This document shows, one piece after another, positions 2,896 to 64,000 of a DNA stretch of 64,000 nucleotides. A model generated the notes under the pieces. That model ran no database searches, was not told where the DNA came from, and saw only the letters and a list, made by a program, of their open reading frames with translations. The stretch is from contig NC_134026.1 in the NCBI RefSeq assembly GCF_964204645.1, forward strand, positions 11,307,950 through 11,371,949, in the 5' to 3' direction. This DNA is from Tubulanus polymorphus (taxonomy: Eukaryota > Animalia > Nemertea). Made by a program: the position numbers and the translations under genes. Every line of letters begins with the position of its first letter. Position 1 is the stretch's first letter.

Positions 2896-4396
2896 AAGAC
2901 ATCTCCAGGACACACACTGTTAGAAAAAATCTTGTAAATTTACTAAAAAATCCTGGCAGCAAAGTTGACTAGCAAAAGTTGTAAAATTACATGCACTTGT
3001 AACCAGTACAATAACTTGTAATACTACAAGATTCAATTGTAGAAATACAACTTTTCCCAGTCAACTTTGCTGCCAGGAATTTTCAGTAAATTTACAAGAT
3101 TTGATTTCATTTCACAAGACAAATATGTAAAAACAATAACAACAGATTTTACATGTAACAATATAACATAGATGATTTATTCTTAGAAAATACTCCTAAA
3201 GTTTAAATTTGAATTAATTCTTCTACGAAACCAAAAAAGCTGTCATACATACTCAATGTATAAACAAACAAGTAACATTTCATGGTAGAACTTCAAATAT
3301 TTACATGTCCGTATTTCAGATTCTTGTTAGACATCAATGTCCCAAATTGGTTACTTTTAACACATGTACAGTGTAACCACGTCACAACCTTGTATGATTA
3401 CCCAATGTTTTAAGAAACACTGGTATAATGAACACTAGAAAATCCTGACAATCCTGCCTGACCAAAGAGAAAATTCACAAACCGCATATGAACTATTAAA
3501 TTCATTGTTCTGGGAGGTTTCGTTGCAACAAGATTTTCATTTAACAAGTTCTCATTACATTCAAAGATATTAAAAATCTTTATGTCATGATTTTAAAAAA
3601 ATAATTGTTTTGCCACTCTCTCAAATTATTTTAGCTTGCACAAGGAAAGACAAATTGAAAAACAGTTAACAAGTTCACTGCTGCCCAAAACGACTTAGTT
3701 AGACCAGCTTTCATCTATGTGACACAACTTAGTTTAGATTACTTGTACATGAACTTAATCTATATGTCCTTACATGTAATCATAGTTATAATCAATCGAA
3801 AATGATACGAATTAAGATCTACTTCACATGAATTAATGAAAAACGAGTGACTAAATTTAAGTCAAAACTTTTGACGCACTCATATCCACATTTTCAAAGA
3901 AAATTGTCAAAAATTTGAGCAGATGAATGTTTTGAACAATGATGTCAAAACATAATACAATCAAAAGAGATTTTATGAGAAAATAAAACTCTTTAACAGA
4001 GAAGAACAAGTTCAAAATTATCTAATACACATCATAGAATTTTAACCTGACTTAACTTAAAGCTCCTCTGGCATGGTTCTCACACTTACAAGAATTAAAA
4101 ATTCCCAAGTTTTTCCCTGTACTGTGGGAACCATGCTCTAGTGGAGTGTCAAGCGTCAGACGCGACGAAATCTAATATAAGAAATGAAAATCACATTCCA
4201 CACAAAACATTTCATAAACTTTTGAAACTCTTAACACCATATATAATAAAAGTTAGTATTTGATATTAAAACAAAAATCTTTAAACTTTAAAATCAAAAG
4301 ATTATGAATTCACTTGAATTCCGAGCATACAAGTGCATCAATTAATGGATGAGACCAGTTTCCTGCCATATTTTATATGCTTATATAAATGTACTA

Positions 4397-12983: not shown

Positions 12984-14660
12984 TCAAGTGTTGAGTTTAA
13001 CCAGTTTACAGAGGAATTTTGATATAAGTTTATTATGGGGTGAAAAACCATTGTTAAGGTTTACAACGTTGTTCGAATTTTCAATAATTAATGCAGATTC
13101 CAAAATATGTCTTCTAGTTTTATCGCTGCAAGGGTAAATTAATTCAGCATTAGCAAAATCAAAATTGTGTGAAGTCTGAAAAACATCGCTCTCAGCAACT
13201 CCGCTTTCAGGTTTAAAGTTTTTTACATCTAATTTATGCTCTTTTATGCGTTGATTAAGATTCCGACCTGTTTCTCCTATATATACTTTGTCGCAAACTT
13301 TACAAGGTATTTTATAAATTCAACAGTTTAGGGATTCGGTTTTCGGTTTGTTGTTAATCAATATGTTACTAAGTTTATTATTGTATTTAAAGATAAGTTG
13401 TTTATTTAGTGACCGAAGAGAAACTTTAGAATTCTCGAGGAAAGGTACATACGGTACAATGATAGGCTGTTTATCGGTAGCCAACGTAGGAGTTCTAAGG
13501 TTGTTATTTCTAAAATGCGTAGTACGAGCTTTAAGTAGAGCTTTTTTCAATAGGAAATCGGGGTAGGCAAGTTTTTTGAGAGATTGGTAAATATGGTGAA
13601 TTTCATCGGGTAGAAATGAGGGGTCGCAAATTCTCAAAGCGCGAAGAAATAATCCTTGAGCTAAACCGAGTTTAATATCCGGAGAAGTAAAAGAGAAGTA
13701 ATGGAGGTAGGATTCAGCGTTGGTAGGTTTCCTATAAACCGCGAATTTCAAAAAGGATCCACAGTTAAAAATCAAAACATCCAGAAAAGGTATTTTACTA
13801 TTAGATTCCCATTCATACGTAAAAGCCAGAGACGGGTAAAGGGAGTTTAAATATATAAGAAAGTTATCAACATTGAAGTCAAAGGGAACCAAAGCCAGAA
13901 CATCGTCAACATATCTGAGCCAGATTTTAGGGTGAATATCAGTGTAAAGTCGCAATATTTCAGATTCAACATGTTCTAGGAATAAATTAGCTAGAATAGG
14001 ACTAAGAGGATTTCCCATAGCGATACCGAATGTCTGTTCGTAAAAACAATTGTTGAATTCAAAAAAGGAGTCCGTCGTACAAATAGAGATAAGGTCGATG
14101 ATACAATCCGTAGGAATGCCGAAGTTAATGTTAAGTGGTGGTAATCTGCGTTTTAAGAAATCAAGAGTAGGTCCAAGAGGAACATTGGTAAAAAGGGAAG
14201 TAACATCAAATGATATAAATTTGTCGTTGCCAGGGATAATATTCTTAATACGTTCAAGTAAGTGTTGATTATGGCGAAGGTGCGACGGAGAGAACGAACC
14301 GAGCACCGGAGATAACTGTTTCGCGAGAAATTTAGATAACCGGTATGTAGGAGAATTACAATTGGAGACTATAGGGCGCAGTGGAACATTATCTTTATGA
14401 ATTTTAGGCAATCCATAGATATATGGTAAAGAGGGAAGACGTGAATGGAACTTATTCAGAGTTTCTTTAGCGGAGGGGAAACGTTTAATAATATCCGAAA
14501 GACTTCTGTTGAAATTAGCTTGCATACGAGGAAGAGGATTCGATTTAAGTTTCTTATAAACACCAGGATTATCCAAGAGAGATTGCATTTTAACATTATA
14601 ATTATCCAGATCTAAAATCACAATCTTGCCACCTTTATCAGCCTTAGATATTTTAATAGT
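12984..14660 (-). pseudogene. PLE reverse transcriptase fused to GIY-YIG endonuclease; one in-frame stop
   Basis: KADKG, YGLPKIHK...PLRPIVS, SFDVTSLFTNVP, GIAMGNPLSP, RYVDD; the frame continues past TGA (13320-13322) as IYKIPCKVCDKVYIGETGRNLNQRIKEH. Confidence 0.9.
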
Positions 14661-14811
14661 CTTTACGCAGCGAGCCGTAATTCCCCAACGAGCCGTCCAT
14701 TGACGATGACATGTGTACGTCACCGTTCTGTTTTTTGTTTTCTTCTGAAATATGACAATAAACGTAATTATTTATGCATAGCATTACGACTATAAAGACC
14801 ATTACAGGTAT

Positions 14812-15195
14812 CAAGGGGTCCAGGGACACCATGCCCACTTGGGAAGTGGTTTCAAATGCTCATCATTGTTACATTTTCAATATTCAACGCACCCTGGTGA
14901 GTATACAAAAAAACAAATACCTTGAAACTCACCACAAATATAGAACATTTTATGAGCTACAACATTGCAGTGAATTGTGGAAAAAATATGCCTAGGTACC
15001 AATATAATATATAAATACTAAGTTAGTCTACTATTTTACTATTCAAAGCCCCCTTGTGACCATACACAAAAACCAATTTACAAATTTACAAACAAGCGCT
15101 ACAAATTTGCAATTGATCGTGGTAAATATGCATAGATACCAATATAATATGGAGAACTAATTTGTCGTACTTTTCAACGCTCCCTGCAGACCATA
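14812..15195 (-). mobile_element. Partial HINE/DINE-like Helentron repeat
   Basis: ggggtccagggacaccatgcccacttgggaagtgg plus 2-3 internal subrepeats, as in 30661-31917. Confidence 0.75.
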
Positions 15196-16990: not shown

Positions 16991-19676
16991 TTATAGCAAA
17001 TTTTGTAGCCTGAAACATACAAGAAATATATAGACGATTTATATATGAGGCTTTGAACTTACTCATTGTATCTGTCTGGAAGGAAATGGTTCACCAGAAT
17101 ACAGATCATATCCGTAATTTTTTTATCTTTATGCTTTTGGAGGTATGAATATTTAAATATCTTATTCTGCCTTTCAATCCCATTGTTAGTGTTGACACTG
17201 GCCAGAAATCGATCTTGGCGAAAAGCATCTACCCACCTCTGTAATTTGTAGAGAATAAACATTAAACTAGGGGGCTCAGGAACATCATGCCCACTTGGGG
17301 AGTGGTTTGAAATGCTAAAAAATCTGACAATTTCAATATTCAACACCCCATGGTGACCGTACCATGGTGACCATACACTAAAACAAATGACCTTGAACTC
17401 ACCAAAATCATAGAAAATGTCATGAGCTATAATTCTGCAATTGATTTTGGCGAACAACAATGGCTACCAGTCGGCCACCTTGGTTCTGACCGGGCCAGTT
17501 TTTTGGGCTGAACATGTGTCTAGGGTTGTTACACGTGTAACCAAAATATCAAGACAATCCATTGAAGTGTCCTCAAAACTTCCCAAAATAACTGGATTCC
17601 GGCTACGGACAAAAGGTGGATGTAAAGCGAACGCAATAGGCCACTGGGACATAAGTCCCAAATGTACTAAAAATTAGTACATGTAAAAGTTTTTTCTATA
17701 TAGTCGATAAATCCAAGAATGTACCTTCGCGTGTTTTAACCAGTACGTTTGAAAGTATTTCTGCAGTTTGGAGTTCTTGTTCCAAACTTCACTCTCTTTG
17801 AATTCTGCAAGGCGTTTTTCATATGTTTCCACATCAATAGAACAAGCAATTCTCCGCATAAAAGCTAAAACAGTAGCCTTATTTTCGGTCACCATATTTT
17901 CCTTCTTCGACGTCCACCTTTCCCACGCTTGCTCGCGATGGAAATCGCATATAAAAACCATACATCCTAAGTGAATACATCAGTAAAAGTAATATAAGCA
18001 TAATAAAAAATAAACATGTGGGTGCAGTACATGAGTGGAAATCAGAACGACATCTTACCGGGAAAAACTTCTTCAACTGCCTGTATTTCCTCTTCACAGT
18101 AATCCGACATGAAGTATGTGGGTGAAAAAGAAGGATTCCACTCTTTCAACATTTTGAGAGCATTAATGATGCTCTCTTTGCTTTCATTTTCAGTAATGAA
18201 TGTTCCGACAACGATGTAGTTGACATTGGTTTTTACCACCAAGAAGAATAGTGGCAAAGCATACTTTGTGGTGCGATATGTCGCATCGAGCAACACAAGC
18301 TCATTTCCATATCTTAGTAGTAGGCGTTTTTGCCACGCTGTTTGGTGTACAAAAAGAAATGGAATATGTTCACCATCATCGTTGGAAGAAGCCATTTGTA
18401 GAAAAAGGTTGTCGTCAGAATTCTTTTCCCATTCACTTAATTTTAATTTGAGGTTTTCCTGGTCGAGTTTTGACAACCTATAATCTGTTCGGAATTTATT
18501 TACATGGGTGCGGATTTGCTGTAATGTAGGGAAAAAACGTCGATTTGTCTTCTCGGGTGGCTTTTGTCCAGCAAACAACACTTGATTAACTAGAAAACGT
18601 AAATGGCGCTTGACCTCATTACTATCCGTTATACCTTCTTCTACGAGCTCGCGTATATTACTCACAAGACGTTTGTCAATTACCTGGGCCATGCCTCCAC
18701 TCTGAAGATGAATAAACAATGGATAACGGATGTATGTCACATACCTCATTGTAGGGAACCACAAAAGCAAAATATGAAATTCATATACAGTACCACATAC
18801 CTCGCCAGTGACATGGTTTTTGTGTTCATCATCCTTAGGAAATCTTACATATATCCTACGTTCAGGGTTTCTTATCAACCCATTGGCTCTTAACTTTGCA
18901 GACCGCGTCACCATTTTAGATTTTGTGCATTTACCATCAATCTAGAATTGAGAAAAGAGAATTGATTAGGAAAGGCTGTACTAGTAGTAATGTAATCCAT
19001 GAAAATCAGACTCACGATACCTCATAACCAGGAAATTTAATTATTTCTCTGAGATGTATTTGAGCAGGACACCCGAGTTTCTTAGTATTCTGGATATGCA
19101 TTTTTCTTTTTACAAATGCATGATCTGACTTCAAAGCATGCTGAAATGAAACAAATGACACTAAAATAGGCGACCAAAATTTATCAATTAACAACTATGG
19201 ACTAAACTCACTTCTTGATTTTCATGATATCTCTGTTTAAAGGATACTTTCATATCTTTGCCATGTTGACAATCCATGAGTAATGTCCCACCAACAATAA
19301 ATGGTGTTCCATCATATTCAAGGCCAAGGGGCAATTTGCCATTCATAGAATCCTGCCAGAGTATCTTATGGTTTCCTGCGCTTGGATCTACAATACAGGA
19401 TCCCAAGAGATTTAGCAGTTTAGGTGCATGTGACAAAAATAGGCTGACTTACTTTTTCGCTGTAGTCCGTTGTACTTGTAGTTGTACTGTAGTAGGCCTA
19501 TGGCTATAAAACAGTTAAAAACCACGGTCCACGATGATACACGTACCTGTTCGACCAAAATTTGCTGTCTGCCTGACTTTGCAAAACTTTGTTAAGCTTT
19601 GTATCTCATATTCGCTGATAACATCAAGTACTCTTTCGAGAGATTTATAGTATCCGAAACGTTCGACATTCGACAT
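16991..19676 (-). CDS. Spliced MULE-type DDE transposase gene with N-terminal CaRF/ALS2CR8-like domain (~8 exons)
   Basis: Exon pieces DCQHGKD, TKKLGCPAQIHLREIIKFPGY (CaRF-like), LDATYRTTKYALPLFFLVVKTN, FMSDYCEEE, CDFHREQAW, NTNNGIERQN; GT-AG boundaries; element ends not confidently located; last exon uncertain. Confidence 0.8.
17264..17673 (-). mobile_element. Short complete HINE/DINE-like element inside a MULE gene intron
   Basis: Both termini of the 30661-31917 family are present (aaactagggg...gcccacttggg; gggacataagtcccaaatgtactaaaaa). Confidence 0.8.
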
Positions 19677-34755: not shown

Positions 34756-35119
34756 AGTAATAGGAGTTTAGTTGTTCCAGATCAAAGGTCGAACGGTTGA
34801 GCTCATTAAAAACAAACTATTAAAAGTAATTTAAAACTATAATATATTTTCATAGCCGTGTGTATTTTATATTATAACTAAATATTTATTCTAAGATATT
34901 AATAATTTAAATTTTATAAGCTCCGCGACCAATTGATTTATTTACAATACACAAATTCATATAATCAAATATATTCAAATAATAATAATTATTCTATTAT
35001 TTAACTAAAATACACACGGCTATGAAAATATATTATAGTTTTAAATTACTTTTAATATTTTGTTTTTAATGAGCTCGACCATTCAACCTTTAACCTAGAA
35101 CAACTAAACCCCTATTACT
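34756..35119. repeat. Terminal palindrome of copy B (centre partly deleted)
   Basis: agtaataggagtttagttgttc ... gaacaactaaacccctattact; ~110-bp arms. Confidence 0.9.
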
Positions 35120-35392: not shown

Positions 35393-38300
35393 ATGGAAGC
35401 AAATAAGTACTACTGTCCAACATGTAATATCAATATAGATAAATCCCAAAAAGCAAGACACAATAAAACTAAAACACATTTAGAGAATAAATTGAAATTA
35501 GAATATGAAGATGATATATTAGAAACTAAATTAGATGAATTAAAGAATGAAAAAGAAACATATAAATGTGATACCTGTAATCAATCATTCAGTGATAAAA
35601 GATATTATAAAGAACATTTAAATCTAAAAGTCATATTGGAAATATGAATAATGATATTTTAGGTGAAGATTATTTTGATAATGACAATGATAAGAAACAT
35701 AAGGCAATTAAAAGAATAAGAAATAAATTAAACAATAAAAGACCATACATGGAAGATGTAAGAAATTATATTAATTCATTAGATAATAAAAAAGATATAG
35801 AGATAACCGAAGCATTTAAAAGTGATATTGGCCCATCAGCTATTGAGTTTAAATTTCATAAAGGAAAAACATTAGAAGAAAATAAAAAACATTTAGAAAA
35901 TATTAAAAATATTATAAAAATAATTACAGATGTTGAATACCCTAAAATTAGTATATCTTCTAAAGTAAAGTTTATAAAATCTGAAGATAAACCAATATAT
36001 ACTATAAATTCTCATTCACAACATATTATATCTAAACAACATATAGATGATAAATTAGATAAATGTTATAATGAAGTAAAAACTAAAATAGAAGAGAAAT
36101 ATTTTGAAGGATCAGGTTTAATATTTGATGAAATAATATTTATGACTTTACATGTTTATAACACTAAATATAATAAGTTAACTAAATCAAAACCAATTGA
36201 TGAAAATAATGTATCATATTATAAAGAACCAGATATTGAAGCATGGAGTTATATTAAAATACCATTTAAAACTAATGCTGTAATAAATGTACAAAATTTT
36301 GATGATAAATGTTTTCTATGGGCTATAATTAGTTGCTTACATCCTGCAACTGATAATATTTGTAGATAAACTCATTATAAACCATTTGAAAATAATTATA
36401 AGATAGATAAGTATCCTGTCAGAATTAGAAACATCCCAAAAATAGAAAGAGATAATAATATAAAGATAAATGTGTTTGATTTACTCAAATTACCAAAAAC
36501 AAAAGGTAACAATATAAAACATTATACATTAGAACCTTTATATCTATCAAAAGATTATGATTCAAACGATGTTATAGATATATTATATTATGAGAATCAT
36601 TATATGTGGATTAAAAGAATTGATTTATTTTTTAAATCAGAAAATGATTTTGATAATAAAATATATCTATGTAGAAAATGTTTACATAAATTCAGAACTG
36701 AAAGTGCATTATTAAATCATAAACAATTATGTGAAAATCATGATTATTGTAAATTAGTTTTACCAAATGAAAAGGATAAAATATTAGAATTCAAAAAATA
36801 TGATTACAAAAATAAAGTACCATTTGCAATATATGGAGATTTTTAATCATTAAATAAGGAACTAACTGATCAAGATAGAAAAGAAATATATTATAAAAGA
36901 AAGAAATTAAATTCTAATGAAAATGATTTTTCATATGAACCACCAAAAACAAATACAATTAAAAAGATTCATCAATCAGCTGCAGCTTTCGGGTTATATA
37001 TAAAATCTGATTATCCAGAACTAATTGAAAGTGAATATTATGATTATAGAAATGAAAATGTTATCAATCATTTTTGTGACTTATTAATTGAATATGAAAT
37101 AGGATTTAGTAAATTATTGAATACAAACATAGAAATTATAATGACAGAAGAAGATAAAGAAGAATTTGTGTTCGCAGGCAAATGTTATTATTGTGAAAAG
37201 ATATTTAATTATAAAGATAAAAAAGTAAGAGACCATGATCATTTGAATGGAAAGTTTAGAGGTGCTGCGCATGAGAATTGTAACTTACAAGCTAAGAAAA
37301 TTAATTTTGTTCCAGTTATATTTCATAATCTATCAGGATATGATGCACATTTATTCATCAAACAGTTATGCCATAAAATAGAAGAAATCAATAATGAAAT
37401 AGAAAGATTAAATTCAAATAGATCAAAAGATAAAATGCCAACTTATAAATTTAAAATGTTAGCTAAAACATCTGAGAATTATATATCATTCCAATTTGGT
37501 TGCCTAAGATTTATAGATTCATATAGATTTTTTAATAGTTCATTAGATAACTTATCAAAATCATCAGTTGATGATGAATTAAAAATATTAAAACAACACT
37601 ACCCAAATAATGATGATTTTCAATTAATGAGATATAAAGGAGCAATTCCATATTCATTTTATAAATCACATGATGATTTCAATATAACTGAATTATTAAA
37701 AGAACAATTCTATGATGAATTAAAAAATGAATATGTTAAAGATGAAGTATATAATAGAACATTGAATATTTGGAATCATTTCAAAATAGAAAATCATGGA
37801 CAATTAGTAGATTTATATTTAAAATCAGATGTATTATTATTATCGGATATATTCGAAAGGTTTTGGAGATGTAAACCTAAAATATTCTAATATTGATCCA
37901 TGTCATTGTTATTCTAGTCCAGGCTTAACATGGGATTGTGGATTAAAATTTACAGATATAAAAATGGATTTGTTAACAAATATAGATCAATTATTATTTG
38001 AAAAATCTATAAGAGGAGGAGTCTCAGGTGTATTAGGCGATAGATATTTCAATGTAAATGATAACCCTGGATATAAGTTATTATATATAGATGCAAATAA
38101 TTTGTATGGTTGGGCAATGATGGAACCACAACCTTATGGAGTATTTGAAATAAGTGAAGTTTTACAACATGATAATAATGATAAATTTGATTGGAAGAAA
38201 AGAATCCTAGATATTGCAGATGATTCAGATACTGGTTACTTCTTTGTTGTAGACTTAGAATATCCTGAACATATTAAATTTAAATCTAGAAATCTAGCAT

Positions 38301-49753: not shown

Positions 49754-50365
49754 ATGAATAAAGATTTATCTATATTTGAATCGCATAATATGTTAGTTAC
49801 TGGTGTAACAAATTGTGGTAAAACACATTTCATATTAGATTTGTTAGAAACTATTTATAAGAATCATTTTGATAATATAATATTATTCTGTCCTACTTAT
49901 GAAATGAATAAAACATATAATAGAGATATAGTTAAGATGAAAAAGTTTATTATATTAAATCCTAAAACAGTAAAAGAAAATTTAGATAATTGTATAAAAA
50001 TAGCAATTGATACTTATAAAGGATCAAATACATTATTCATTGTAGATGATTGCGAAAATTTACATGATTCAAAAGTTAGAGAAAGTGAGTTATGTTATTT
50101 AGCTTTCTCTGGAAGACATTTCGGGATAACAACATGGGTTTTAAATCAAAAATATAATTCAATTGTTAAAGACTTTAGGGAGAATATAAGATTTCTAGTT
50201 TTATTTTATAACAAAGATAAAAACTCTATGCAACAATCATTGGAAGAAAATCAAATTATACCTACTGAATAACATGATGAATATATGAATAAATTAAAGA
50301 ATAATAAAGGTTCAAAATTATTACTGAGACTACAATTTCCCTATGAATATAAATTTATAAAATAA
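49754..50365 (+). pseudogene. A32/FtsK-like packaging ATPase (premature stop at ~50270)
   Basis: GVTNCGKT, FIVDD, SGRH, NQ motifs. Confidence 0.92.
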
Positions 50366-50398
50366 AATTTATAATTTGGAATATTATAGAAACTAATT

Positions 50399-50697
50399 TA
50401 TATATCTATGTACTAGACGTACGAGTAAGAAAGTAAGATTCTTACCTTTTAACTTTCTTGGCAGGAATCTTGGATTCTTACGTACGTCTAGTCCATAGAA
50501 ATATGAATTATTAAATGAAATATATAATAATGAATAAATCATATATCAAAACTATGTTTATAATTTATGTTTATAATTTATGTTTATAATTTATGTTATA
50601 ATTTATGTTTATAATTTATGTTTATAATTTATATTTCTTGGCAAGGATTCTTGGATTCTTACTTTCTTACTCATACGTCTAGTGCGTAGATATATAA
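50399..50697. repeat. Convergent intergenic region: ~42-bp inverted repeats around a (TTTATAATTTATG)n array
   Basis: tatatctatgtactagacgtacgagtaagaaagtaaga vs tcttactttcttactcatacgtctagtgcgtagatata; about six 13-bp units at 50555-50632. Confidence 0.8.
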
Positions 50698-50719
50698 ATA
50701 TTTTTATAGATATATAAAT

Positions 50720-51800
50720 AGTTTTATAATAATTATTCTAATTTTGTTTCTAATACATTTATAAAATCATCTTTGTTTATATCAAATTCATCAGAAGTCT
50801 TTGGCATATTTATTAATTCTATTTCATCCTTCATTCTACGTTCATCATCACTTAATCAAGCTTTTATTCTTAATTTTTCAAAGTAATCATTAGAATTATC
50901 ACCATCAAAATCAAATTCAAAATCATTTATTAAATTAAATAAATCTAGGTATCCATTATACGCTAACTTATATATTTGGTCAGGATTATCTTCTGCATAA
51001 GCTAATAATTTATCAAATAACAACTTAAAGAATATATGATATTGTTTAGTTTCAGGATTAAAATATTTGATATATTTCTTTGGTTCATCTAACAATGGTA
51101 ACATACCCACTTTTTTATAAACATTAATTAGATGTAATTTTGATTTATAACGAGTAATTTTATCAACAGGTTCAATTTCTTTATTACAATAATCACATAT
51201 TAATTCTTTTTCATTTTCTATGTGCCCCTTAGATTTTTTATGTTTAGAAAAATTACTTTTAGAAATATCTAAATTACAAATGTTACAATGTTTTTTAGAA
51301 TCATCAATTATTTCATTATCTGTTATATCATTATCATTAGTTTCAATTGGGTTAACATTATCTATTACATTATCTGTTATATTATCTATGGTATCATTAG
51401 TTTCAATTGGGTTAACATTATCTTTTATATTACTAACTGATATATTATTATCATTATTTTTCTTTTCTTTTTCTATATGTTTCTTTGATTTCTTATGTGA
51501 TGCCCAATTTTTATATGATATATATTTCTTACATACATCACAATATTTTGGATTATAATAATCTTTTTTTGATTCAATATCATATGTAGAGGGTATATTA
51601 TAAGATGTAGATGCTGTTACATCTTCTATTTTAGTTTCAATATTATTACTATCTTCTATTTTAGTTTCAATATTATCTTCTATTTTATATTCAATATCAT
51701 TCTTATCTTCTATTTTAGTTTCAATATTATTTTCTATGTTAGTTTCAATATTATCTTTTATTTTACTTATTCTATATTTGAATTGATTAAAGTAATCTCC
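50720..51800 (-). pseudogene. Copy C accessory multi-zinc-finger gene with IETKIED repeats
   Basis: CDVC...HKKSKKH, CNIC...HKKSKGH, CDYC; disrupted, start unclear. Confidence 0.65.
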
Positions 51801-51835
51801 AAAATACTTTATAAATTTTTATTAAAGTTAAAATT

Positions 51836-53070
51836 TTAATACATAACACTATTTAATTGAGAATTTACAATATTTAATTGCGCGTCAGATATAATATAAA
51901 TGTGCATTTTGAAATTTAGGCTTCCTTTTTCTTTGTCATGAATAATTGTATTCCATCTTTAGTGTTTTGTAATTTTTTTCCAGCACCATGTAATGAATTA
52001 TCCTCTGTCGTTCTAAAATCTAACCATAATGCATATATATTACCGGTATAATAATCAATTTGATCAATATTACAATTTTCAGATGATTTCACTTTCTCAT
52101 TCATAAAATGTTTTCTAATTTCTGGCCATTGATCAATCATTCTCATTCCTTGACAAAATATTTTATTTGCTATTCCTTCGATAGATATTTCTACTTTTGT
52201 TATTTCAGGATTATAATAATTATCAACATTTATTGCACCATTAGTATATGTTGCAATGGTAAAAATTATTAATATACCTTTAATAGATCTTCTTGGGAAG
52301 TTAATATTCTCATTAATAATTTCATCATTTTTAATATAAATTTATCAATATAATCATATAATAATGAAAATCCTTGATTGTATTTAGTTTGAATTATACT
52401 TGAAATATTTTCATCAGTTACTGTATCATATTCTAAACATATATTCGATAATTTATAACTCATATCTTTATTAACGCTAGATAATACAATTTCATTTACA
52501 GGAGCAAATGTTATTTCGAACATAACATCTTCTTGAATTGCGTATTTATATAAAGGTGCATTATTATTTATCAATTCAAAGTCTAATGGAATTTTATATT
52601 TGCTTCCATATATACTTTTTATCAATTTATCTATAGCATTAGTTAATATTGCATTATGTGCTTCTGATCTTAATTTATTTTGGTTTTTCCGATTGGATGC
52701 CTTGAAATATCATATTATTTCTATTTTCTTTAGTTAACCATAAATCTTTATAATGCATAAATAAATTATAATCATGTAATGAGAAAACTGTTTCTGGGCC
52801 AATCTTTATAGTTAATTTTTTAATCAAATATCTTCCAACATTATCAACAACATAATTATTATTATTACCGATTACTTTTATATCGGCTGATAAATAAATA
52901 CTATTTGGAACATAAAAAGTATTTTGTGTTAATCGAGGAATTCTAACATATAAAGTTTCATCAGGATTAATATTAGAAGGGTTATGAGTAATTATATGAT
53001 GTGATCTTTCTGCTTTAATAGCATTAGATATTCTATGATTCTTAGAAGGATTGATATAACTCCCACTCAT
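51836..53070 (-). pseudogene. Major capsid protein (double jelly-roll) of copy C, frameshifted
   Basis: ITHNPSNINPDETLYVRIP, KIPLDF, YKLSNICLEYDTV, YNPEITKV, ALWLDFRT, YIISDAQLNI: motifs I recognise from adintovirus-type MCPs. Confidence 0.8.
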
Positions 53071-53093
53071 TTATTTAACAAAAAATTAATTAT

Positions 53094-54579
53094 TTATTTT
53101 TGATCATGTTTACTTGATATTTTTTGATATCATGTTTACTAACCCAAAAATAATAGCACTTACAACTGTAATTAAAAATAAAATAATATGTTCAGCAGCA
53201 AAGTTAATAACGTTTCCTGCAGATTTCAATATAAAACCAACAATTGATGCAATAATTTCTGGTAAAGCTGCAGCAGATTTGTTAGATAGTTCCCATAAAT
53301 ATTTTGCTTATTTCTTTAAACCATCTTTAACTTTATCTTGTATAGAATTATTATCTGGAGGTTTATCTGGTTTATTGGGAGTAGGAGTAGATTTCAGTGA
53401 ATTCGATATAGCTAAACCTATTGTTGTAAATAACATAGTTACAGCTGTTAGAATTGAAAGAATTGTTATTCCTTCTAATTTAAATAACAATTTTATTCTA
53501 TCTTTCAATGATATTTCAGAATCTGGTTTCATCAACAAATCTTTAAAAATAACTTTGAATCTATTTATATTATAATCATATGATTTTAATAATAATTTAA
53601 TTTCTTCTTTTTGTAATTCTATGTTATATTCTAAATCATCTTTTTCTTTTTCTAAATACGCATTTCTTTTTTTAAATTCGATTTCTTCAATTACTTTATT
53701 ATCTCTGTCTAATTTTAGTTGTTCAGATTCTTTTCTTGATTTAAATAATTCATCTTCTAAAGTTCTAATTTTTAAATCTCTTATACTTTTATCATGCGCA
53801 ATTTTATCAGCTTCATTTCTTATACTAATAATTTCTCTTATTGCTTTATCAGAAAATATATCTAAATCTTTTAATTCTTGATCTGTTGCATCAAGTAATC
53901 CATTTGGTAAAAGTTTTTCAATTGGAACTTTATTTGATTTAAGTTTACTAGTTTTGGAAGTTATATTCTGTTCAGAAGTTGTTTCTGTTTCTAAATAATT
54001 TTTGATTGTTTCAAATAATTCATTAATTCTTTGTTTAAATACTCTTTTATTTTGATTTATTTCTTCTTGTGTTACATCTTCTATTTCATTACTATTTCTT
54101 ATTCTCTTAATTCTAGATAGTAATGAGTCAGACTTAAGCAAAGTTGATTTTGCTACTATTTTTTCTTCTTTTTTATTAGAGATATTAATATAATAATCCG
54201 ATTTATCTTTCTCACGATAATAAAATTCACCATCTAAAAACTTTAAATCTTGTACTAAAAGTCTGGCGCCTCTGGCATTTATATTATATCCAGATTCTAC
54301 AAATACATGTTTGAAATTATAAATACATTCATTATATTCTAAATTTTCCTTTAATAAACCTGGATTTTCATTTTCAATAGGTATTCTCGATCTAGTTCTT
54401 CTATCAAATTCATCTGAAGATGGGGCTTTAGTACCACTTTCTGCTAAATTAGAATTATATGCTGATTCATTACCATCATCAATATTAGTATCAGCAGTCA
54501 TATAATCATCATCAATATATCCTTCATTATTATTTCCCATTTCTCCAATTTCATAATCTTCTCCACCTTTTACATCCAT
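53094..54579 (-). pseudogene. GasderminX-like coiled-coil/membrane protein of copy C (stop at 53308)
   Basis: LKDRIKLLFKLEGITILSILTA...proline linker...KSAAALPEIIASIVGFILKSAG. Confidence 0.75.
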
Positions 54580-54600
54580 TTACAAAATAAAAAATTAAAA

Positions 54601-55920
54601 TTAAAAATATAATATTCCTCCGATTACAATTCCTATACAAGTTAAAGCTAATTTAGTATTTTCATGGGATTTATTATCATCATTTAGTTTAATTATATCA
54701 TGTTGAATAATATCAGTTTTAATATTTTCTGATGTATTGTAATCTTTTATTTTAGAATCATTATTTAATTTAATATTATTAGTTTTAGTTTCAGTTGATT
54801 GAATGTGTTTTTTATTTTTTTCACCTTCCATTAATTTTGGAGCAGTGATAATCTTTTTATTTATATCATTCAATCCAAATGAATTATTTATTGTCGCAGT
54901 TTTAATTAGATTATTATAACCAATTATATTTCCCATCTTTAATACTAAATCATTAGAAATAATGAATAGATTAGGGCCTATACAATAATTTAATCTAATA
55001 TGTGATTTATCTAAATAATTTTGATATCTTACAATGTTTTCTGGAATCGATCTATTTTTATCATTATGAATTGAATCTTCAAATAATACTTTGCATTGTT
55101 TCTGCGCATCGAATGAAGTGTTATCATTTCCAATTATTGGGGATCTTGTTTCAACTTGCGCACTTAAAATACATATCAAATAAGTTCTAATAGATTGATT
55201 TATTCTTTGTATACCAGCTTTAGTAAAACCTTCACTATTTTCTAAAATGAAATTAACCCAACCATTATTATTTTGTTGTTGTATATTATTATAATATTTT
55301 GGTAATTCATTCCAATTTAGTGTTCTTATATCTGAATTTGTCATTATTTTTCCAAATTCTTTAGTATACAATATTCCTAATCCACCCATTGTTCCAATTT
55401 TTGATCTAAAATCTTTATTTGAATTAATATTAAATTCATTACATATTTTATAAAACTTAGAAAAATTAATATTATTATTCAATTCTTTAAAATATTTTGA
55501 ACCTGGTAAAGGACATTCTAATTCATCTAATATTAATTTTATTTGAAAATAAGTATGAAATCTAAAAAGTGATAACATTAATGGTAAACTTGGTTTGTTT
55601 AAATGATCATTCCAACTAATTCCACATCCTGTTGTTGCACAATAAACAGCAAAATTTAATTGGTTCTGCCAATACTTCATATTAGATTTTAATAACCATT
55701 GTTTTGCCTCATTTAAATTTTTAAAATTAATTGTATACACATGAAATATATTTTCCATCTTTACATGAAAATTATTACTTTCAGTAACATAAATATATAA
55801 ATCAATTAATGAATCTAAAACTTAATTTCTATATGAAATATCTTTATTAAAATCTATTGCAGGAATATTATATTTTATTGATTTATTATATTGGAAAGCT
55901 TTTGGAAAACTATCTGCCAT
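54601..55920 (-). pseudogene. YWQNQLNFAVYCATTGCGIS-family protein of copy C
   Basis: 385-aa ORF plus frameshifted 5' part from TAAATG at 55920. Confidence 0.8.
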
Positions 55921-55936
55921 TTATATAACTAAAAAA

Positions 55937-57402
55937 TTAATAATTTATCAATTCTTTTAATAATTTATCTTGTTCTTCAACTGTTATATGGCCATTTAAA
56001 CTTATTATATAATCTAGTGTATTCTTTAATTTATTAATTTCTTTTATATTAGTTTTAATTTTTTCTTTATTACTTTTTATATTTAATTTTGAACTTATAC
56101 CAGTTAAAACACTTGAACTTAATCCTAATACACCAATTGATATAGCTAAAGGTGTTAATGGACTGAATATTGCTAGAAATGTTATTACAGAACTAATTGT
56201 AACCGAACCACTTATAATCAAATAATATATAATTTTACTTTTTAAATATTTTTTCTTTTTAACTTTAAATCATTTTCAAATTCTAATATTTGTTTTTCTA
56301 AATATATTTTCAATTTAGTTTTATTTATATCATGAGGAATAATATCAATATTATCAACTTTATCATCCATTTATTTAGCAAAAAAAATTACTAATTAGTA
56401 AACTTATAAGCAACAAATATAACAATAACTGTTCCACCTAAAATCCATATTATTTCATATTTCTTCTGTTCATTACTTGGGGTATAATAATCTGATAATT
56501 TAGGTTTGTATAGATGTAATTTTTCTTTTATTTGTTACTGCGTTATATAAACTCATTGCATCATCAACTGATTGAAAATCTCTATGTGAAATCTTCTGAT
56601 CATATAATTCCTTGTTAATATAATCCATATAGTTTTGTCTCTTTTCTCTAATTCTTCCGCTGCTTTATTTGTATTTCTCTAATGCTAAGTTATGTCTTTT
56701 TTGTTCTGTTAATGAACCATTTTTATCAATATGTTTAAATAAATAACCGCCACCAGTAAATGCTAAAGCGTTAACAATTGCCGATCCTATAATAGTTATA
56801 ACTGCAAAAGCCATTTATTTAGTAAAATAATTATGCATTTATATGGGAGGAATATATTTTTGTTTTTCTAAATAATCAATAGTTAAATTAGATAAAGTAA
56901 CTGCTAATGTTAATTTTAAAATATCATTTATATCAAATCTATCAACATTAACACTTCCCATTTTGAATACTTTTTTTAATACCATTGAATAACCAACAGT
57001 TCCAACTGATAGTAATGCTCCATTATATAATCCAGTTATTATCCACTTATTATCACTCATTTATTTATCAAAAAAATTACTATCATCAAAATATTTAGTT
57101 ACCTTATTTATGATTAATTCAACATTTATTTCATTACTACTTTTATGATTATCATATATTTTTGTTAATATGTTTTTAATATCATCAATCATTCCATCTT
57201 CATTTAATTCATAATATTCTAAAGGTGATTTAATTAAATCAATTACTTTTCCTATATTATAATTTTCTTTATTAATCATTGATGCATTGTTAAATGATTT
57301 ACTTTTTATATCAGTAATTACATCATTTAGTTCAATTCTTATTTCTTTACCATGTTTAAAATCAAACCCAAAACATATACTCGGTCCAACAGTTATATTC
57401 AT
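55937..57402 (-). CDS. Copy C cluster of four small genes (55937-56370, 56391-56814, 56839-57060, 57061-57402), some frameshifted
   Basis: Colinear with 40579-42274. Confidence 0.8.
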
Positions 57403-57419
57403 TTATATAGTGAAAAAAA

Positions 57420-58167
57420 TTACTCTTTACATCTTATAACTAATTCATAAATTACAGGGAAATTATTTAAATCAATTAAGTATCCATTATGATTTCTAAT
57501 TTCTAATCTAAAATTATTAAAACGAGGAATGCATGGTTTGAAATCACATTCTGTTAAATTATAATTTATTTGCGTTCCAAATTCTTTAACATTCTTCAAT
57601 GGTAAAATGTTTAGTAAACCAGAATTACAAGTTATATCTTTAGTTGCTTCGAATGTTTTTGTAGGATCGATTAAATTGCAATAAATATAAAAATGTGTGT
57701 AAGGTATTAAGTTTGGTGTAACAGCATCAATATTTGGAAGAATTCCTAATAGTTAAGCTATAGGTTTTTTTACCATAAATTTATGTTTTTCACTATTAGA
57801 CAACCTTATCTTTATTATATCAGAACTATTACTTTTTAAAAATCTAATACTAAACCCAGAACTACTACCTAATTTGTGCCAGGCTTTTCTATTAATTTCT
57901 TGTGCTAATGTATCAAAATTATATAACCCCGGTTTTAAATATATCTAGGACCATTCATTTTTACCTTAATCAAAAATTAAAAAGGCTCTATGTTCAATAG
58001 TTTTATCCGATATATTATAAAAAAGAATTACATAAACTTATATTTACTAATTTTAAATCAACACAATTCTTAAATTCTCTATCTAATTGAACTAATAAAT
58101 TATGTGATTTATAATTTGTAAGTTTTCTTGAATCAACAAATATTCTGTATTCTTTTAATTCCGCCAT
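57420..58167 (-). pseudogene. Copy C penton
   Basis: Homologous to 39807-40562, frameshifted, divergent centre. Confidence 0.8.
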
Positions 58168-58182
58168 TTATTTTTACATATT

Positions 58183-58536
58183 TTATTCGAAATCTATTTC
58201 ATGATGCCCTTTTTCATTCTTACCTTTGTATACGAAATAGAAATCACCAGAACATAATTCTTCTAGATCTTCACTTGATAATCTATGAAATCTATCCTGT
58301 AAATATGTTCTGAATTTATATGTATTTCCTTTTAATCCTTCATATTCTAAGTGTATAACTAATTTATCTCCATAGTTATTAGTAACTGTATCAATATTTG
58401 TAATTAAATATTTCTTATGAATTGTTAATTCTGTTAACTTTTTGAATTTATAATCTACAGATTTTACATTTTTTATATCTTTAATTCTATCTAGAAATAA
58501 TTTGTTGTTCTCACTGTGTGTTTGTTTACTCTCCAT
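58183..58536 (-). CDS. Copy C homolog of ORF 39439
   Basis: Near-identical 117-aa protein. Confidence 0.75.
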   Translation of the reverse strand: MESKQTHSENNKLFLDRIKDIKNVKSVDYKFKKLTELTIHKKYLITNIDTVTNNYGDKLVIHLEYEGLKGNTYKFRTYLQDRFHRLSSEDLEELCSGDFYFVYKGKNEKGHHEIDFE

Positions 58537-58564
58537 TTTAATAACATATTTTATTAAAATTTAA

Positions 58565-60011
58565 TTAACACGTTAGAATTCTTTTCATTATCTCGTTCTC
58601 TTTTGTTTCTTCTCTTTTAAATTTTAAGTACTCATCTAAATTACAACCATAAGCAACTGTATGAATTCCATCATCTAAAATATATCTTTTATCATCAAAT
58701 GGATTCAAACTAACCTTTTCAATTTCTTCAATAAACATTTCATGATCTTCAGATCTTAAACATCTCATCTTATGTTTTCTAACTTCTTCATTGAATATAC
58801 AATTGATGTAATCTTTGAAATGAATATTCTTTTCTACTACACTTTTGGTTATTCCTTTTAACTTTTTAGCTTCATGTTCTTCAGTTTTATATGAATACAT
58901 TTTAGATCTAATACCAATGAATTCAATCATTTCTTCACCGCCTAATTCATCTTTGAATTTACCAGGAACTTTTTTATTATCATTGCTAAACAATTCATGA
59001 TTTTTAGGATAATTACTGAAATCAAAATGATGTTTTAATGTTTTTAAATCATCAGTTATGTTATCAGTTTTTATCTTTAATATGTAAGAATCGGTATCAA
59101 AATATAATATTTCTATATGTTTTTCTCCAAAAAGTGGTTGTAATACATTATAATAGAATTCATACATTAGTAATTTTGATAATTCTAAAACTGACGCGCC
59201 AACATAGATTGGTTTATTAAATTTCATTGATGTTCTTCTCATCTTAACTGCAGCTAAATTTTCATCAAATATTCTGTTACCAATGAACTTAGGATATGAT
59301 TGTAAATGTCTAATTCTTTTACCATTACTAACTAACTCAATATCATTTCTATTTCTAATATTTTCACAAGTCTTACCATAGAATGCATTGTTCATTAGTT
59401 TGAAGAAATCTTTCTCAAAATCAGTTTTAGCTTCAGTTCTCTGTTTGGTATTAAAATCTATATTTTTCTAACCACTTAGATTGACTAAATGAAATATAAC
59501 TATGCACTTTTTTTAGGATCATTCCTTGTTTTAGATAAAACTTTAACATTCTATAATGTACTACATAATTATATTTATCTTCTTGAGTTACCATTAACTT
59601 TTCTGTATGAATATGATTTTCAGGTTTAATTCTTTTTTGATAATTTGATAATTCTTCATGAGTTACAGTTTTATGTTCTGACAGTATGCTTTTAATTGTG
59701 TTCTGTTTCTTATCATTATCTTTATCAAAATAATCTTCACCTAAAATATCATTATTCTTATTTCTAATATGACTTTTAGATTTTAAATGTTCATTATAAT
59801 ATCTTTTATCACTGAATGATTGATTACATGTATCACATTTGTATGTTTCTTTTTCATTCTTTAATTCATCTAATTTAGTTTCTAATATATCATCTTCATA
59901 TTCTAATTTCAATTTATTCTCTAAATGTGTTTTAGTTTTATTGTGTCTTGATTTTTGGGATTTATCTATATTGATATTACATGTTGGACAGTAGTACTTA
60001 TTTGCTTCCAT
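58565..60011 (-). pseudogene. polB: Copy C polB with ~2.6-kb internal deletion
   Basis: N-terminal Zn-finger part joined at ~59690 to EHKTVTHEEL; KLMNNAFYGK and YFDTDS retained. Confidence 0.92.
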
Positions 60012-60218
60012 TTTAATACTAAATTTTTTTTTTTAAATTGATTTTAGAAGTTCAATGATTTATATTATGTATTATTTCAATCAGACTTTACTAACACTTT
60101 TAATGTTTAAAAATCTAACTCACACAAATATGAATATTGAAATAATGTTGTAAATATATACTTTTATATTGAATAATCTGTCAATTTAAATGTTATTCAT
60201 GTACATGATTATTTTAAG

Positions 60219-60628
60219 AGTAATAGGGGTAATGGGCTTTCAGGTTAAAGGTTGAATGGTCGAGATCATTGAAAAAGAATATTAAAAGTAATTTAAAACT
60301 ATAATATATTTTCATAACCGTGTGTATTTCAGTTGAATAATAGAATAATAATTATTATTATAATATATTTGATTATATGAATTTGTGTACTGTAAATAAA
60401 TCAATTGGTCGTGGAGCGGAGCGGTAGCGAAGTGGAGCGACCAATTGATTTAATACAATATACATCTAAAATTCAAATTATTGATATCTTAGAATAAATA
60501 TTTAGTTATAATATAAAATGCACACGGTTATGAAAATATATTAAAGTTTTAAATTACTTTTAATGTTTTGTTTTTTAATGAGCTCGATCGTTCGACCTTT
60601 GGCCTGAAAGCCCATTACCCCTATTACT
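60219..60628. repeat. 410-bp terminal palindrome within TIR of copy C
   Basis: agtaataggggtaatgggctttcagg ... cctgaaagcccattacccctattact. Confidence 0.92.
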
Positions 60629-61175
60629 AGCATATAACATAGAATTACAAAAAGAAGAAATTAAATTATTATTAAAATCATATGATTATAATATTAATAG
60701 ATTAAAAGTTATTTTTAAAGATTTGTTGATAAAACCAAATTCTGAAATATAATTGAAAGATAGAATAAAATTATTATTTAAATTAGAAGGAATAACAATT
60801 CTTTCAATTCTAACAGCTGTAATTATGTTATTTACAACAATAGGTTTAGCTATATCAAATTCATTAAAATCTACTCCTACTCCCAATAAACCGGATAAAC
60901 CCCCGAATGATAATAATTCTATACAAGATAAAGTTAAGGATGGTTTAAAGAAATTAGCAAAATATTTATGGGAACTATCTAAAAAATCTGCTGCAGCATT
61001 GCCCGGAGTTATTGCATCAATTGTTGGTTTTATATTGAAATCTGCAGGAAACATTATTAACTTTGCGGCTGAACATATTATTTTATTTTTTAATTACAGT
61101 TGTAAGTGCTATTATTTTTGGGTTAGTGAATATGATATCAAAAGATATCAAGTAAACATGATAAAAAATAAATAA
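60629..61175 (+). pseudogene. GasderminX-like gene of copy B, C-part
   Basis: YNIELQKEEIKLL...KDRIKLLFKLEGITI...SAAALPGVIASIVG. Confidence 0.8.
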
Positions 61176-61195: not shown

Positions 61196-62454
61196 ATGAG
61201 TGGGAGTTATATCAATCCTTCTAAGAATCATAGAATATCTAATGCTATTATCTATTATCTATTATGCTATTATCTATGCTATCATATAATAACTCATAAC
61301 CCTTCTAATATTAATCCTGATGAAACTTTATATGTTTGAATTCCTCGATTAACACAAAATACTTTTTATGTTCCAAATAGTATTTATTTATCAGCCGATA
61401 TAAAAGTAACCGGTAATAATAATAATTATGTTGTCGATAATGTTGGAAGATATTTGATTAAAAAATTAACTATAAAGATTGGTCCAGAAACAGTTTTCTC
61501 ATTAGAAGATTATAATTTATTTGTGCATTATAAAGATTTATGGTTAACTAAAGAAAATAGAAATAATATGATATTTCAAGGAATCCAATCAGAAAACCAA
61601 AATAAATTAAGATCAGAAGCTAATAGCGCAATATTAACTAATGCTTTAGATAAATTGATAAAAAGTATATATGGAAGCAAATATAAAATTCCATTAGACT
61701 TTGAATTGATAAATAATAATGCACCTTTATATAAATACGCAATTCAAGATGTTATATTCGAAATAACATTTGCTCCTGTTAATGAAATTGTAATACCTAG
61801 CGTTAATAAAGATATGGGTTATAAATTATCGAATATATGTTTAGAATATGATACAGTAACTGATGAAAATATTTCAAGTATAATTCAAACTCAATACAAT
61901 CAAGGATTTTCATTATTATATGATTATATTGATAAATTCAAAACTGTAACTATTAATGCAAATGATGAAATAATTAATGAGAATATTAACTTCCCAAGAA
62001 GATCTATTAAAGGTATATTAATATTTTTTACCATTGCAACATATACTAATGGTGCAATAAATGTTGATAATTATTATAATCCTGAAATAACAAAAGTAGA
62101 AATAACTATCGAAGGAATAGCAAATAAAATATTTTGTCAAGGAATGAGAATGATAGATCAATGGCCAGAAATTAGAAAACATTTTATGAATGAAAAAGTG
62201 AAATCATCTGAAAATTGTAATATTAATCAAATTGATTATTATACAGGTAATAAATATGCATTATGGTTAGATTTTAGAACAACAGAGGATAATTCATTAC
62301 ATGGTTCTGGAAAAAACTACAGAACACTAAAGATGGAATACAATTATTCATGACAAAGAATAAAGGAATCAAAAATCTTAAAATGCACATTTATATTATA
62401 TCTGACGCGCAATTAAATATTGTAAATTCTCAATTAAATAGTGTTATGTATTAG
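61196..62454 (+). pseudogene. Major capsid protein of copy B, disrupted
   Basis: Near-identical to 51836-53070. Confidence 0.8.
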
Positions 62455-63338: not shown

Positions 63339-63658
63339 TAAAGGTTGAAAATTGTATAAAATAATAGTAAATAAAAACCGGGGTTTTAAGTATTTATGTA
63401 TCTAATACGTATTTAATACGTATTATTTGAAAATACCTTAAATTATATTTTTTTTAAATTTATATTGAAACCTCAGTAATATTAAATAACCTTTATTATT
63501 TTCAAACTTATTCATATATTAGTTGAAAAAATAAAAATAAATTGGTTGCAAATTGTATGAATAATATTTATTTTAAAAAGGGAGTTTTAAGTATTAATGT
63601 ATTTAATACGTATCTAATACGTATTTAATACGTATTAGATACATAGATATATAAAGAG

Positions 63659-64000
63659 TTATTTTATAAATTTATATTCATATGGAAATTGAAACCTCAG
63701 TAATAATTTTGAACCTTTATTATTCTTTAATTTATTCATATATTCATCATATAATTCAGTAGGTATAATATCATTTTCTTCCAATGATTGTTGCATAGAT
63801 TTTTTAGATTTGTTATAAAATAAAACTAGAAATCTTATATTATCCCTAAAGTTTTTAACAATTGAATTATATTTTTGATTTAAAACCCATGTTGTTATCC
63901 CAAAATGTCTCCCAGAGAAAGCTAAATAACAAAACTCACTTTCTCTAACTTTTGAATCAAGTAAATTTGCACAATCATCTATAATGAATAATGTATTTGA
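63659..64000 (-). CDS. Copy B packaging ATPase, C-terminal part
   Basis: FIIDDCANL...SGRHFGITTWVLNQKYNSIVK...FPYEYKFIK. Confidence 0.9.
   Translation of the reverse strand, partial: SNTLFIIDDCANLLDSKVRESEFCYLAFSGRHFGITTWVLNQKYNSIVKNFRDNIRFLVLFYNKSKKSMQQSLEENDIIPTELYDEYMNKLKNNKGSKLLLRFQFPYEYKFIK

Follow-up and report, generated by a model that had tools for sequence, protein, structure and literature searches.

The window, a stretch of 64,000 nt from the genome of the nemertean Tubulanus polymorphus, carries at 27173-64000 three related AT-rich Polintons nested in one another, element 1 lying in a gene of element 2 and element 2 in the polymerase gene of element 3. Element 1 (44519-60628, 16.1 kb) is delimited by terminal inverted repeats (TIRs) and a target site duplication (TSD), and the gene of element 2 that it interrupts resumes at 60629. 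Its left (44519-45135) and right (60012-60628) TIRs measure about 615 nt, rather than the roughly 595 bp of the original prediction, and are 96% identical. The 6-bp duplication reads TGCATA on the left (44513-44518, forward strand) and AGCATA on the right (60629-60634, forward strand), a match at five of six positions. Host-side repeats at 770-2533, 13320-14588 and 18042-18914 comprise nested inverted repeats, a reverse transcriptase ORF and a MULE/SWIM-type transposase ORF.

The gene content of element 1 is that of a decayed Polinton. A split RVE integrase (48672-49569, forward strand) gives a weak match to the Pfam rve family (E 8e-4, below the curated cut-off), and an A32-like packaging ATPase (49754-50272, forward strand) matches PF04665 with an E-value of 1e-11. 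The split gene at 51916-53070 on the reverse strand, whose homologues are about 415 aa long, probably encodes the major capsid protein; this label is inferred, and one of 108 homologues carries PF16903. Its counterpart in element 2 lies at 61340-62353 (forward strand). A remnant of the protein-primed polymerase gene (pPolB) with a large internal deletion (58565-60032, reverse strand) starts right inside the right TIR. Element 2 retains a full-length pPolB (35611-39409, forward strand), interrupted by stops and frameshifts, with a terminal-protein-like domain, a vOTU domain and the polymerase, as judged from the fold of a close relative, and a domain search places an endonuclease VII-like insert within it (37144-37290, forward strand). 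Both copies in the window are broken; homologues of these polymerases carry PF03175. Among named relatives, the nearest belong to a bivalve, a hydrozoan and insects.

Element 1 is a Polinton: TIRs, a 6-bp TSD (5/6), an RVE integrase with a packaging ATPase and, judged by homologues and a modeled relative, a protein-primed PolB with terminal protein (TP) and vOTU are all present. It shares with the Polintons/Mavericks described so far, as far as the available text of the sources goes, TIRs of hundreds of bp, a 6-bp TSD and an AGT-type end motif, as well as a pPolB with nuclease insert, an RVE integrase, an A32 ATPase and a probable capsid gene (PMC8097293; bioRxiv 10.1101/2023.08.22.554363). 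Known Maverick end motifs include (AGT)2, (AG)3 and (AC)3A (PMC8097293); the ends in the window read AGTAAT, a variant of this motif, and relatives show the canonical AGTAGT and ACACACA. Imperfect inverted repeats also occur between genes, at 50342-50745 and 63385-63696, where a 13-bp tandem array lies between convergent genes adjoining the ATPase. The first of them has 13 G·T against 3 A·C pairs on the forward strand, and its polarity relative to the element looks inconsistent with that of the second copy.

A pPolB relative matching the window segment at 68% (L022) was modeled in place of the broken copies (mean pLDDT 79.7). Its N-terminus is matched by PAD/little-finger domains of the Y family (Z 8.0) and by viral OTU domains (Z 7.7), both middling scores, and a Foldseek search with the TP-vOTU model returned no match at E<=0.001. 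In a 57-row alignment of the N-terminal region, the N, N, D and C residues of the vOTU motif are invariant and a Ser in a GSG loop is nearly so; in the model this Ser follows the second long helix and precedes the last strand. The same layout of TP and vOTU has been described for polinton pPolB in the accessible part of one preprint (bioRxiv 10.1101/2024.03.18.585575). The polymerase thus appears to keep a PRD1-type terminal-protein fold and a vOTU domain, and protein priming is probably retained. The polymerase of the distant element L185 holds an insert that, by its motifs, we take to be VSR-like, a label for which Pfam and PDB sequence searches gave no confirmation, and a related polymerase (P0120) holds an intein with a LAGLIDADG domain. 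VSR or HNH domains have been reported in other pPolB2 polymerases (bioRxiv 10.1101/2023.08.22.554363, available text).

What sets the ends in the window apart from described Polinton TIRs, besides AGTAAT in place of (AGT)2, is that the terminus is repeated inward as a strand-biased fold-back. The original prediction had located such fold-backs at 60219-60628, 44519-44928 and 34756-35119, and the coordinates of all three are borne out, as is the placement of the first two in the outer 410 bp of the element 1 TIRs. The third, at the left end of element 2, is 364 nt long, belongs to another family and has lost part of its tip. The 3'-terminal strand, on which the G·T pairs form, is the forward strand at the right end of element 1 and the reverse strand at its left end; the element 2 fold-back is likewise read on the reverse strand. 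At the right end, the inner arm (60219-60325, forward strand), an inverted second copy of the terminus, faces the outer arm (60520-60628, forward strand), whose 3' limit is exactly the element terminus, as seen both from pairing and from reads entering unrelated flanks at 60628/60629. About 107 near-perfect pairs are followed by some 80 looser ones (about 70% matched), an inner 11-pair stem and a purine-rich tip, with perfect pairing over the 26 nt at the 3'-OH end. The base of the hairpin falls exactly on the terminal nucleotide, both in the two window families and in the two complete distant elements that have TSDs.

At the tip (60402-60447, forward strand), the 11-pair stem encloses mini-hairpin motifs, GCGGAGC at 60416, GCGGTAGC at 60421 and GCGAAG at 60427, and is predicted to adopt a Y or rabbit-ear shape; the motif class is one treated in the available text of PMC13037366. 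An imperfect 3'-terminal hairpin with ears is a parvovirus-type feature, predicted here from the sequence. Six GCGN1-2AGC motifs occur within the three fold-backs, all on the 3'-terminal strand and none on the 5' strand. Elsewhere in the 27-64 kb Polinton region there are only two more, and the whole window has 15; 35% of reads have an exact GCGAAGC as the second ear. Such mini-hairpins are described as extraordinarily stable in DNA, far less so in RNA, resistant to nucleases and located at single-strand origins of phages (PMC13037366, in the portion available).

The pairing of the arms differs between the strands. Over the first 107 pairs on the 3'-terminal strand, the right end of element 1 has 9 G·T, no A·C and 2 other mismatches, the left end 9, 0 and 1, and the element 2 end 6, 1 and 1, in agreement with the claim that the remaining arm mismatches are mostly G·T. 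Distinct transition mismatches pooled by position over the three ends amount to 14 G·T against 1 A·C (14/15; one-sided p=0.0005). The five G·T mispairs first pointed out in a pair of 24-mers are confirmed at pairs 27, 28, 35, 39 and 41, although not all of them are a family trait: the pair 60259/60588 is private to this copy and Watson-Crick in 98% of reads. Likewise, the G·T pairs at 60271 and 60277 exist in the window copy, but about 90% of reads are Watson-Crick there. When both strands were folded, the 3'-terminal one was the more stable at all three ends, by 11-15 kcal/mol (-118.8 vs -104.1, -120.8 vs -108.3 and -106.2 vs -95.0 kcal/mol). None of 100 shuffled controls folded as well as the native end. 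Copy-private transitions are also mostly G·T, an excess that a mutational bias could explain.

A folded RNA would profit from the same asymmetry. An outward transcript pairing through G·U, be it a VA-like RNA or a source of small RNAs, is consistent with an RNA fold that also favors the 3'-terminal strand (-202 vs -165 kcal/mol). This reading is nevertheless highly improbable: the fold-back has no Rfam match and no tRNA-like gene detected by ARAGORN, its arms contain many T runs, its limit falls exactly at the DNA terminus, and the neighboring genes point inward. A DNA structure is favored over an RNA one because the mini-hairpin motifs have a much higher stability in DNA.

Raw reads from an independent 2026 run, about 12% of it, were mapped onto the window structure. 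They span the whole fold-back, and only 88 of 8512 mapped reads fit two places, so that an assembly artefact is unlikely and is rejected. At 60628/60629, 1825 and 585 reads enter unlike flanks (agreement 0.34-0.36); because they continue into such different sequences, the family must occupy many insertion sites. Read depth runs unbroken through 60219 into the inner TIR, and heterogeneous loose ends are listed at 60628/9 and not at 60219, which rejects a free-standing foldback or MITE insertion with its own TSD and unrelated flanks on both sides. Within the window family, then, none of the three outcomes held against the original prediction arose, namely loss of strand bias across copies, a mostly free-standing palindrome with its own TSDs, or an artefact of assembly.

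The reads also show how the arms vary. Variant sites are those at >=12% of reads, 40 of 64 being listed, and the reads are unphased across the arms. Within these terms, facing positions carry matching variant shares at 60234/60613 (38%/35%) and 60321/60524 (25%/26%), the partners 60325/60520 move among T·G, T-A and C-G, and one-base insertions occur once per arm, at 60294 and 60546. The variants at 60603 and 60604 lead to G·T pairs, unless partners outside the listed sites change too. Variants at 60229, 60260, 60551, 60577 and 60579 have no visible partner change among the listed sites and could be breaks or hidden compensations. Depth differs by up to twofold between the outer arm (about 3300-3900) and the inner arm (about 1500-2100; 60590-60605 vs 60238-60253), so that in many ends of the genome the matching inner arm may be missing or replaced by another; this counts against the explanation preferred below. 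Large groups of loose ends lie at 60264 and 60572, some reads hold both arms within 150 bases, and further subfamilies with shorter or different hairpins may exist.

The orientation of the ends is fixed. At most two of four inner-arm changes diagnostic of a flipped end can reach 12% of reads, as only two T>C and three G>A variant sites remain outside those listed. Since the four sites cannot all reach this level, there is no 50:50 mixture, and flip/flop isomers of parvovirus type are not found among these reads. Strand switches at positions symmetric between the two arms occur in about 36 reads, which represent rare arm-to-arm recombination or a library artefact.

Of 107 pairs compared between elements 1 and 2, 86-87 are unchanged, 8 have changed on both sides with pairing kept, 9 have shifted between Watson-Crick and G·T through a change on one side, and 3-4 are broken. 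Over the first 30 nt, the arms within a family are 87-93% identical, against 67-73% to the arms of the other family. The T·G pairs at positions 28, 35 and 39 are common to both, the T always in the inner arm (60246, 60253 and 60257 at the right end of element 1). These data bear on a purely mechanical origin, in which template switching makes and homogenizes the arms, strand-biased deamination or repair that overlooks G·T supplies the wobbles, and the structure has no function. The strand-switching reads fit such a process, as do the mostly G·T private transitions, two conserved T's at former CpG-like sites, and the distant ends of AC type, which are near-perfect and free of bias. Simple homogenization is disfavored, however, because it would erase the shared T·G sites, yet three of them persist beside seven co-changed pairs. 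Furthermore, CpG decay in the host is strand-symmetric; the displaced 5' portion would stay single-stranded longest, predicting the opposite bias; and tip motifs and a bulge at pair 20 recur in very distant families. A functionless by-product is thus quite unlikely.

The search for self-complementarity was extended to other Polintons by scanning 156 polymerase loci plus targeted stretches, although most loci stop short of the element end; L001, L019 and L021, whose TIRs are cut by contig ends, were left out of scoring. Fold-backs of 111-186 nt were found at 12 ends of 10 distant elements. These ends begin AGTAGT, ACACAC or ACTACT, the first two being known Maverick end motifs in the available text of PMC8097293. 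The terminus side of single ends was assigned from the adjacent polymerase or inner-flank homology, and since the AC-type ends are related, the set comes to about four independent lineages. Two of the distant elements are complete, each with a fold-back at either end and flanks that resemble a TSD: L185 (15.1 kb) and L181/L182 (19.4 kb), the latter within an ATT microsatellite. The first 69 pairs of either end hairpin of L185 (291-15427) hold a single mismatch, a T·G at pair 29, and at L185:169-291 the insertion site of one Polinton lies 8 bases away from the fold-back end of a second.

Not every feature of the window ends travels with the fold-back. One distant relative, L151, whose polymerase is 35% identical to P0110, has the polarity of the window (4 G·T, 0 A·C; -42.2 vs -33.3 kcal/mol), but the strict stems of 11 distant ends hold 6 G·T against 5 A·C, and three lean the opposite way. 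The proposed wobble bias is therefore strong in the window family and this one relative only; it is weak elsewhere and not general across Polintons. The tip is more widespread: GCGAAGC or GCGAGC occurs on the 3' strand at 7/12 distant ends and on the 5' strand at 0/12, GCGAGC being presumably a tandem sheared G·A tip. Likewise, 7/12 ends have a one-base bulge at pair 20, the extra base belonging to the inner arm. All five fold-back loci with a capsid gene fall in the capsid clade of the window, across two polymerase types. The only complete element without a terminal fold-back, L059, has TIRs and no match to this clade; its TIRs (1-670, 14611-15052) contain TTAGGG telomere-like arrays.

Other routes to relatives yielded little. 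The TIR pattern had no matches in viral contigs, the window 18-mer had two, with no fold-back listed in either, and capsid queries found no relatives among viral contigs. The AGTAGT pattern was no commoner than the control in five genomes and yielded only two C9 ends, and twenty extra regions near PolB genes added one new fold-back end. Fifty-five loci in prokaryote genome records (L102-L156) hold Polinton polymerases, several with animal-like flanks, and are probably host contigs binned into metagenome-assembled genomes.

Covariation between families and recurrence in relatives support the claim that a single-stranded hairpin is under selection, and folding favors the 3'-terminal strand. Whatever its role, such a hairpin very probably forms on that strand and is maintained. 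For its function, adenovirus offers the starting point: TP-primed synthesis proceeds by strand displacement, and the displaced strand needs a duplex origin at its 3' end, provided by a panhandle. That duplex forms between two distant ITRs, whereas at the Polinton ends it could form locally. To our knowledge, the start of Polinton replication and the exit from the chromosome are modeled from adenovirus and have not been shown experimentally.

The preferred reading, whose chances we put slightly short of even, is that a local hairpin on the 3'-terminal strand stands in for the duplex (panhandle) origin when TP primes the second strand. Strand displacement from one end would free a full-length single strand, whose 3' end would fold immediately, being stabilized by G·T wobbles and G·A-closed loops; the 5' end, with the complementary A·C pairs and T/C loops, would fold worse. 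The 3' hairpin could then replace the long-range panhandle, rebuild a local duplex origin and cap the 3' end, and a TP-primed pPolB copying through it would regenerate the end in one orientation. In duplex DNA, the conserved imperfection 20-40 nt from the terminus may mark the inner copy as a non-origin, much like the bubble of parvoviruses. A paired, recessed 3'-OH is a natural primer, so that some block would have to operate under this scheme, a point that counts against it, and extension of the 3'-OH in vitro has been observed on Streptomyces fold-backs (PMC4513846, available text). The limited reach of the G·T bias, the small number of independent lineages, the mostly G·T private transitions and the TIRs of L059, which lack a fold-back, weigh against it as well.

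That same paired 3' end, perfect over its 26 nt, underlies the self-priming mechanism of the original prediction, in which inward extension yields a hairpin-closed duplex to be resolved asymmetrically, as at the left ends of autonomous parvoviruses, the conserved mismatches or bulge perhaps serving as cutting sites for the nuclease domain of pPolB. The tip looks like the rabbit ears of parvoviruses, the endonuclease VII-like insert and the VSR or HNH domains of other pPolB2 would supply a nuclease, and hairpin priming has been proposed for Halocafeteria elements (bioRxiv 10.64898/2026.07.28.741278, available text). The paired end is indeed there, but as the main mechanism self-priming lost ground on account of the retained domains and the lack of flip/flop isomers. 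The second point is not decisive, because the left end of LuIII is also reported in one orientation only, and that of MVM uses an asymmetric bubble (PMC1185569, in the part available). Against the proposal, a nick at inner-arm pairs 20-40 would, by reasoning, give a flipped and shortened end; no Pfam match to a Rep/NS1-type (HUH) nickase was found among the 31 ORFs scanned, although a missing match is not proof; fold-backs accompany two polymerase types; and the Halocafeteria palindromes occur mostly in elements without pPolB (bioRxiv 10.64898/2026.07.28.741278, same portion). Given a polymerase that keeps its TP and vOTU domains, self-priming by itself is less probable than a local hairpin origin, and we regard it as unlikely.

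The coincidence of hairpin base and terminus, together with the association of fold-backs with a capsid clade and not with a polymerase type, would also suit a signal for excision or integration. Here the hairpin would form on transiently single-stranded chromosomal DNA and show the integrase or a structure-specific nuclease exactly where the 3' boundary lies, by the strand-specific logic of IS200/IS605 ends and integron attC sites. RVE integrases do transfer the 3'-terminal strand, but they act on duplex ends, and neither an HUH nor a tyrosine recombinase was found among the ORFs scanned. A literature search on the attC analogy found no paper, and such a signal is very unlikely.

Returning to the local hairpin origin, its closest working analogy is the telomere of Streptomyces. 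The typical Tpg/Tap telomeres carry a terminal protein at the 5' end, and their 3' single strand is folded, with sheared G·A pairs closing its loops and its terminus folding back on an inner copy (PMC4513846, available text). They differ in being bacterial, with an internal origin, a dedicated Tap primase and several short palindromes; the analogy is functional, and no homology is shown. The left-end hairpins of the parvoviruses MVM and LuIII likewise are imperfect 3' hairpins with ears, reported in one orientation, in which a small asymmetry separates the active from the inactive origin (PMC1185569, available text). These are self-primed ssDNA viruses resolved by NS1, with neither TP nor integrase, and the Polinton ORFs scanned include no NS1-like gene.

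The notion that hairpin ends had not been described for Polintons needs qualification. Terminal palindromes, with hairpin priming proposed, are published for related Halocafeteria elements, namely virophages of subtypes 1, 2, 5 and 6 and the PLV subtype 4, and there too the palindrome lies inside the TIR adjoining the TSD (bioRxiv 10.64898/2026.07.28.741278, available text). Those palindromes measure 52 nt in the subtype figured, were found with <=4 mismatches and sit mostly in non-pPolB elements of a protist host, and the word "wobble" does not appear in that text; the Polinton fold-backs are 110-410 nt long, lie in pPolB elements that retain TP, and pair strand-specifically. Among the nematode, vertebrate and adintovirus Polinton papers checked for terms, "hairpin" and "palindrom" are missing from the text available (including PMC8097293 and bioRxiv 10.1101/2023.08.22.554363), and PMC11296320 and PMC12747079 name hairpins only for poxvirus or giant-virus ends. 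The search of open papers turned up no account of strand-specific non-canonical pairing, of the covariation, of a fixed orientation or of a spread across animal Polintons that bear TP.

A broader picture is offered tentatively and is more doubtful than probable: a capsid-defined clade of animal Polintons may replicate via a single-stranded intermediate with a 3' hairpin telomere resembling those of parvoviruses and Streptomyces, in which wobbles, G·A mini-hairpins and the bulge would select the strand and silence the inner origin. The ends themselves are a concrete, conserved and strand-specific cis-element, testable with oligonucleotides and purified polymerase, and any Polinton library can be screened for their signatures (a fold-back reaching the last base, a GA tip on the 3' strand and a bulge near pair 20). 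Should they prove functional, they connect protein-primed elements to the strategies by which parvoviruses and linear bacterial replicons use hairpin ends, and such a hybrid of protein priming and hairpin ends, if true, would explain how the second strand is initiated and perhaps also why pPolB carries nuclease domains.
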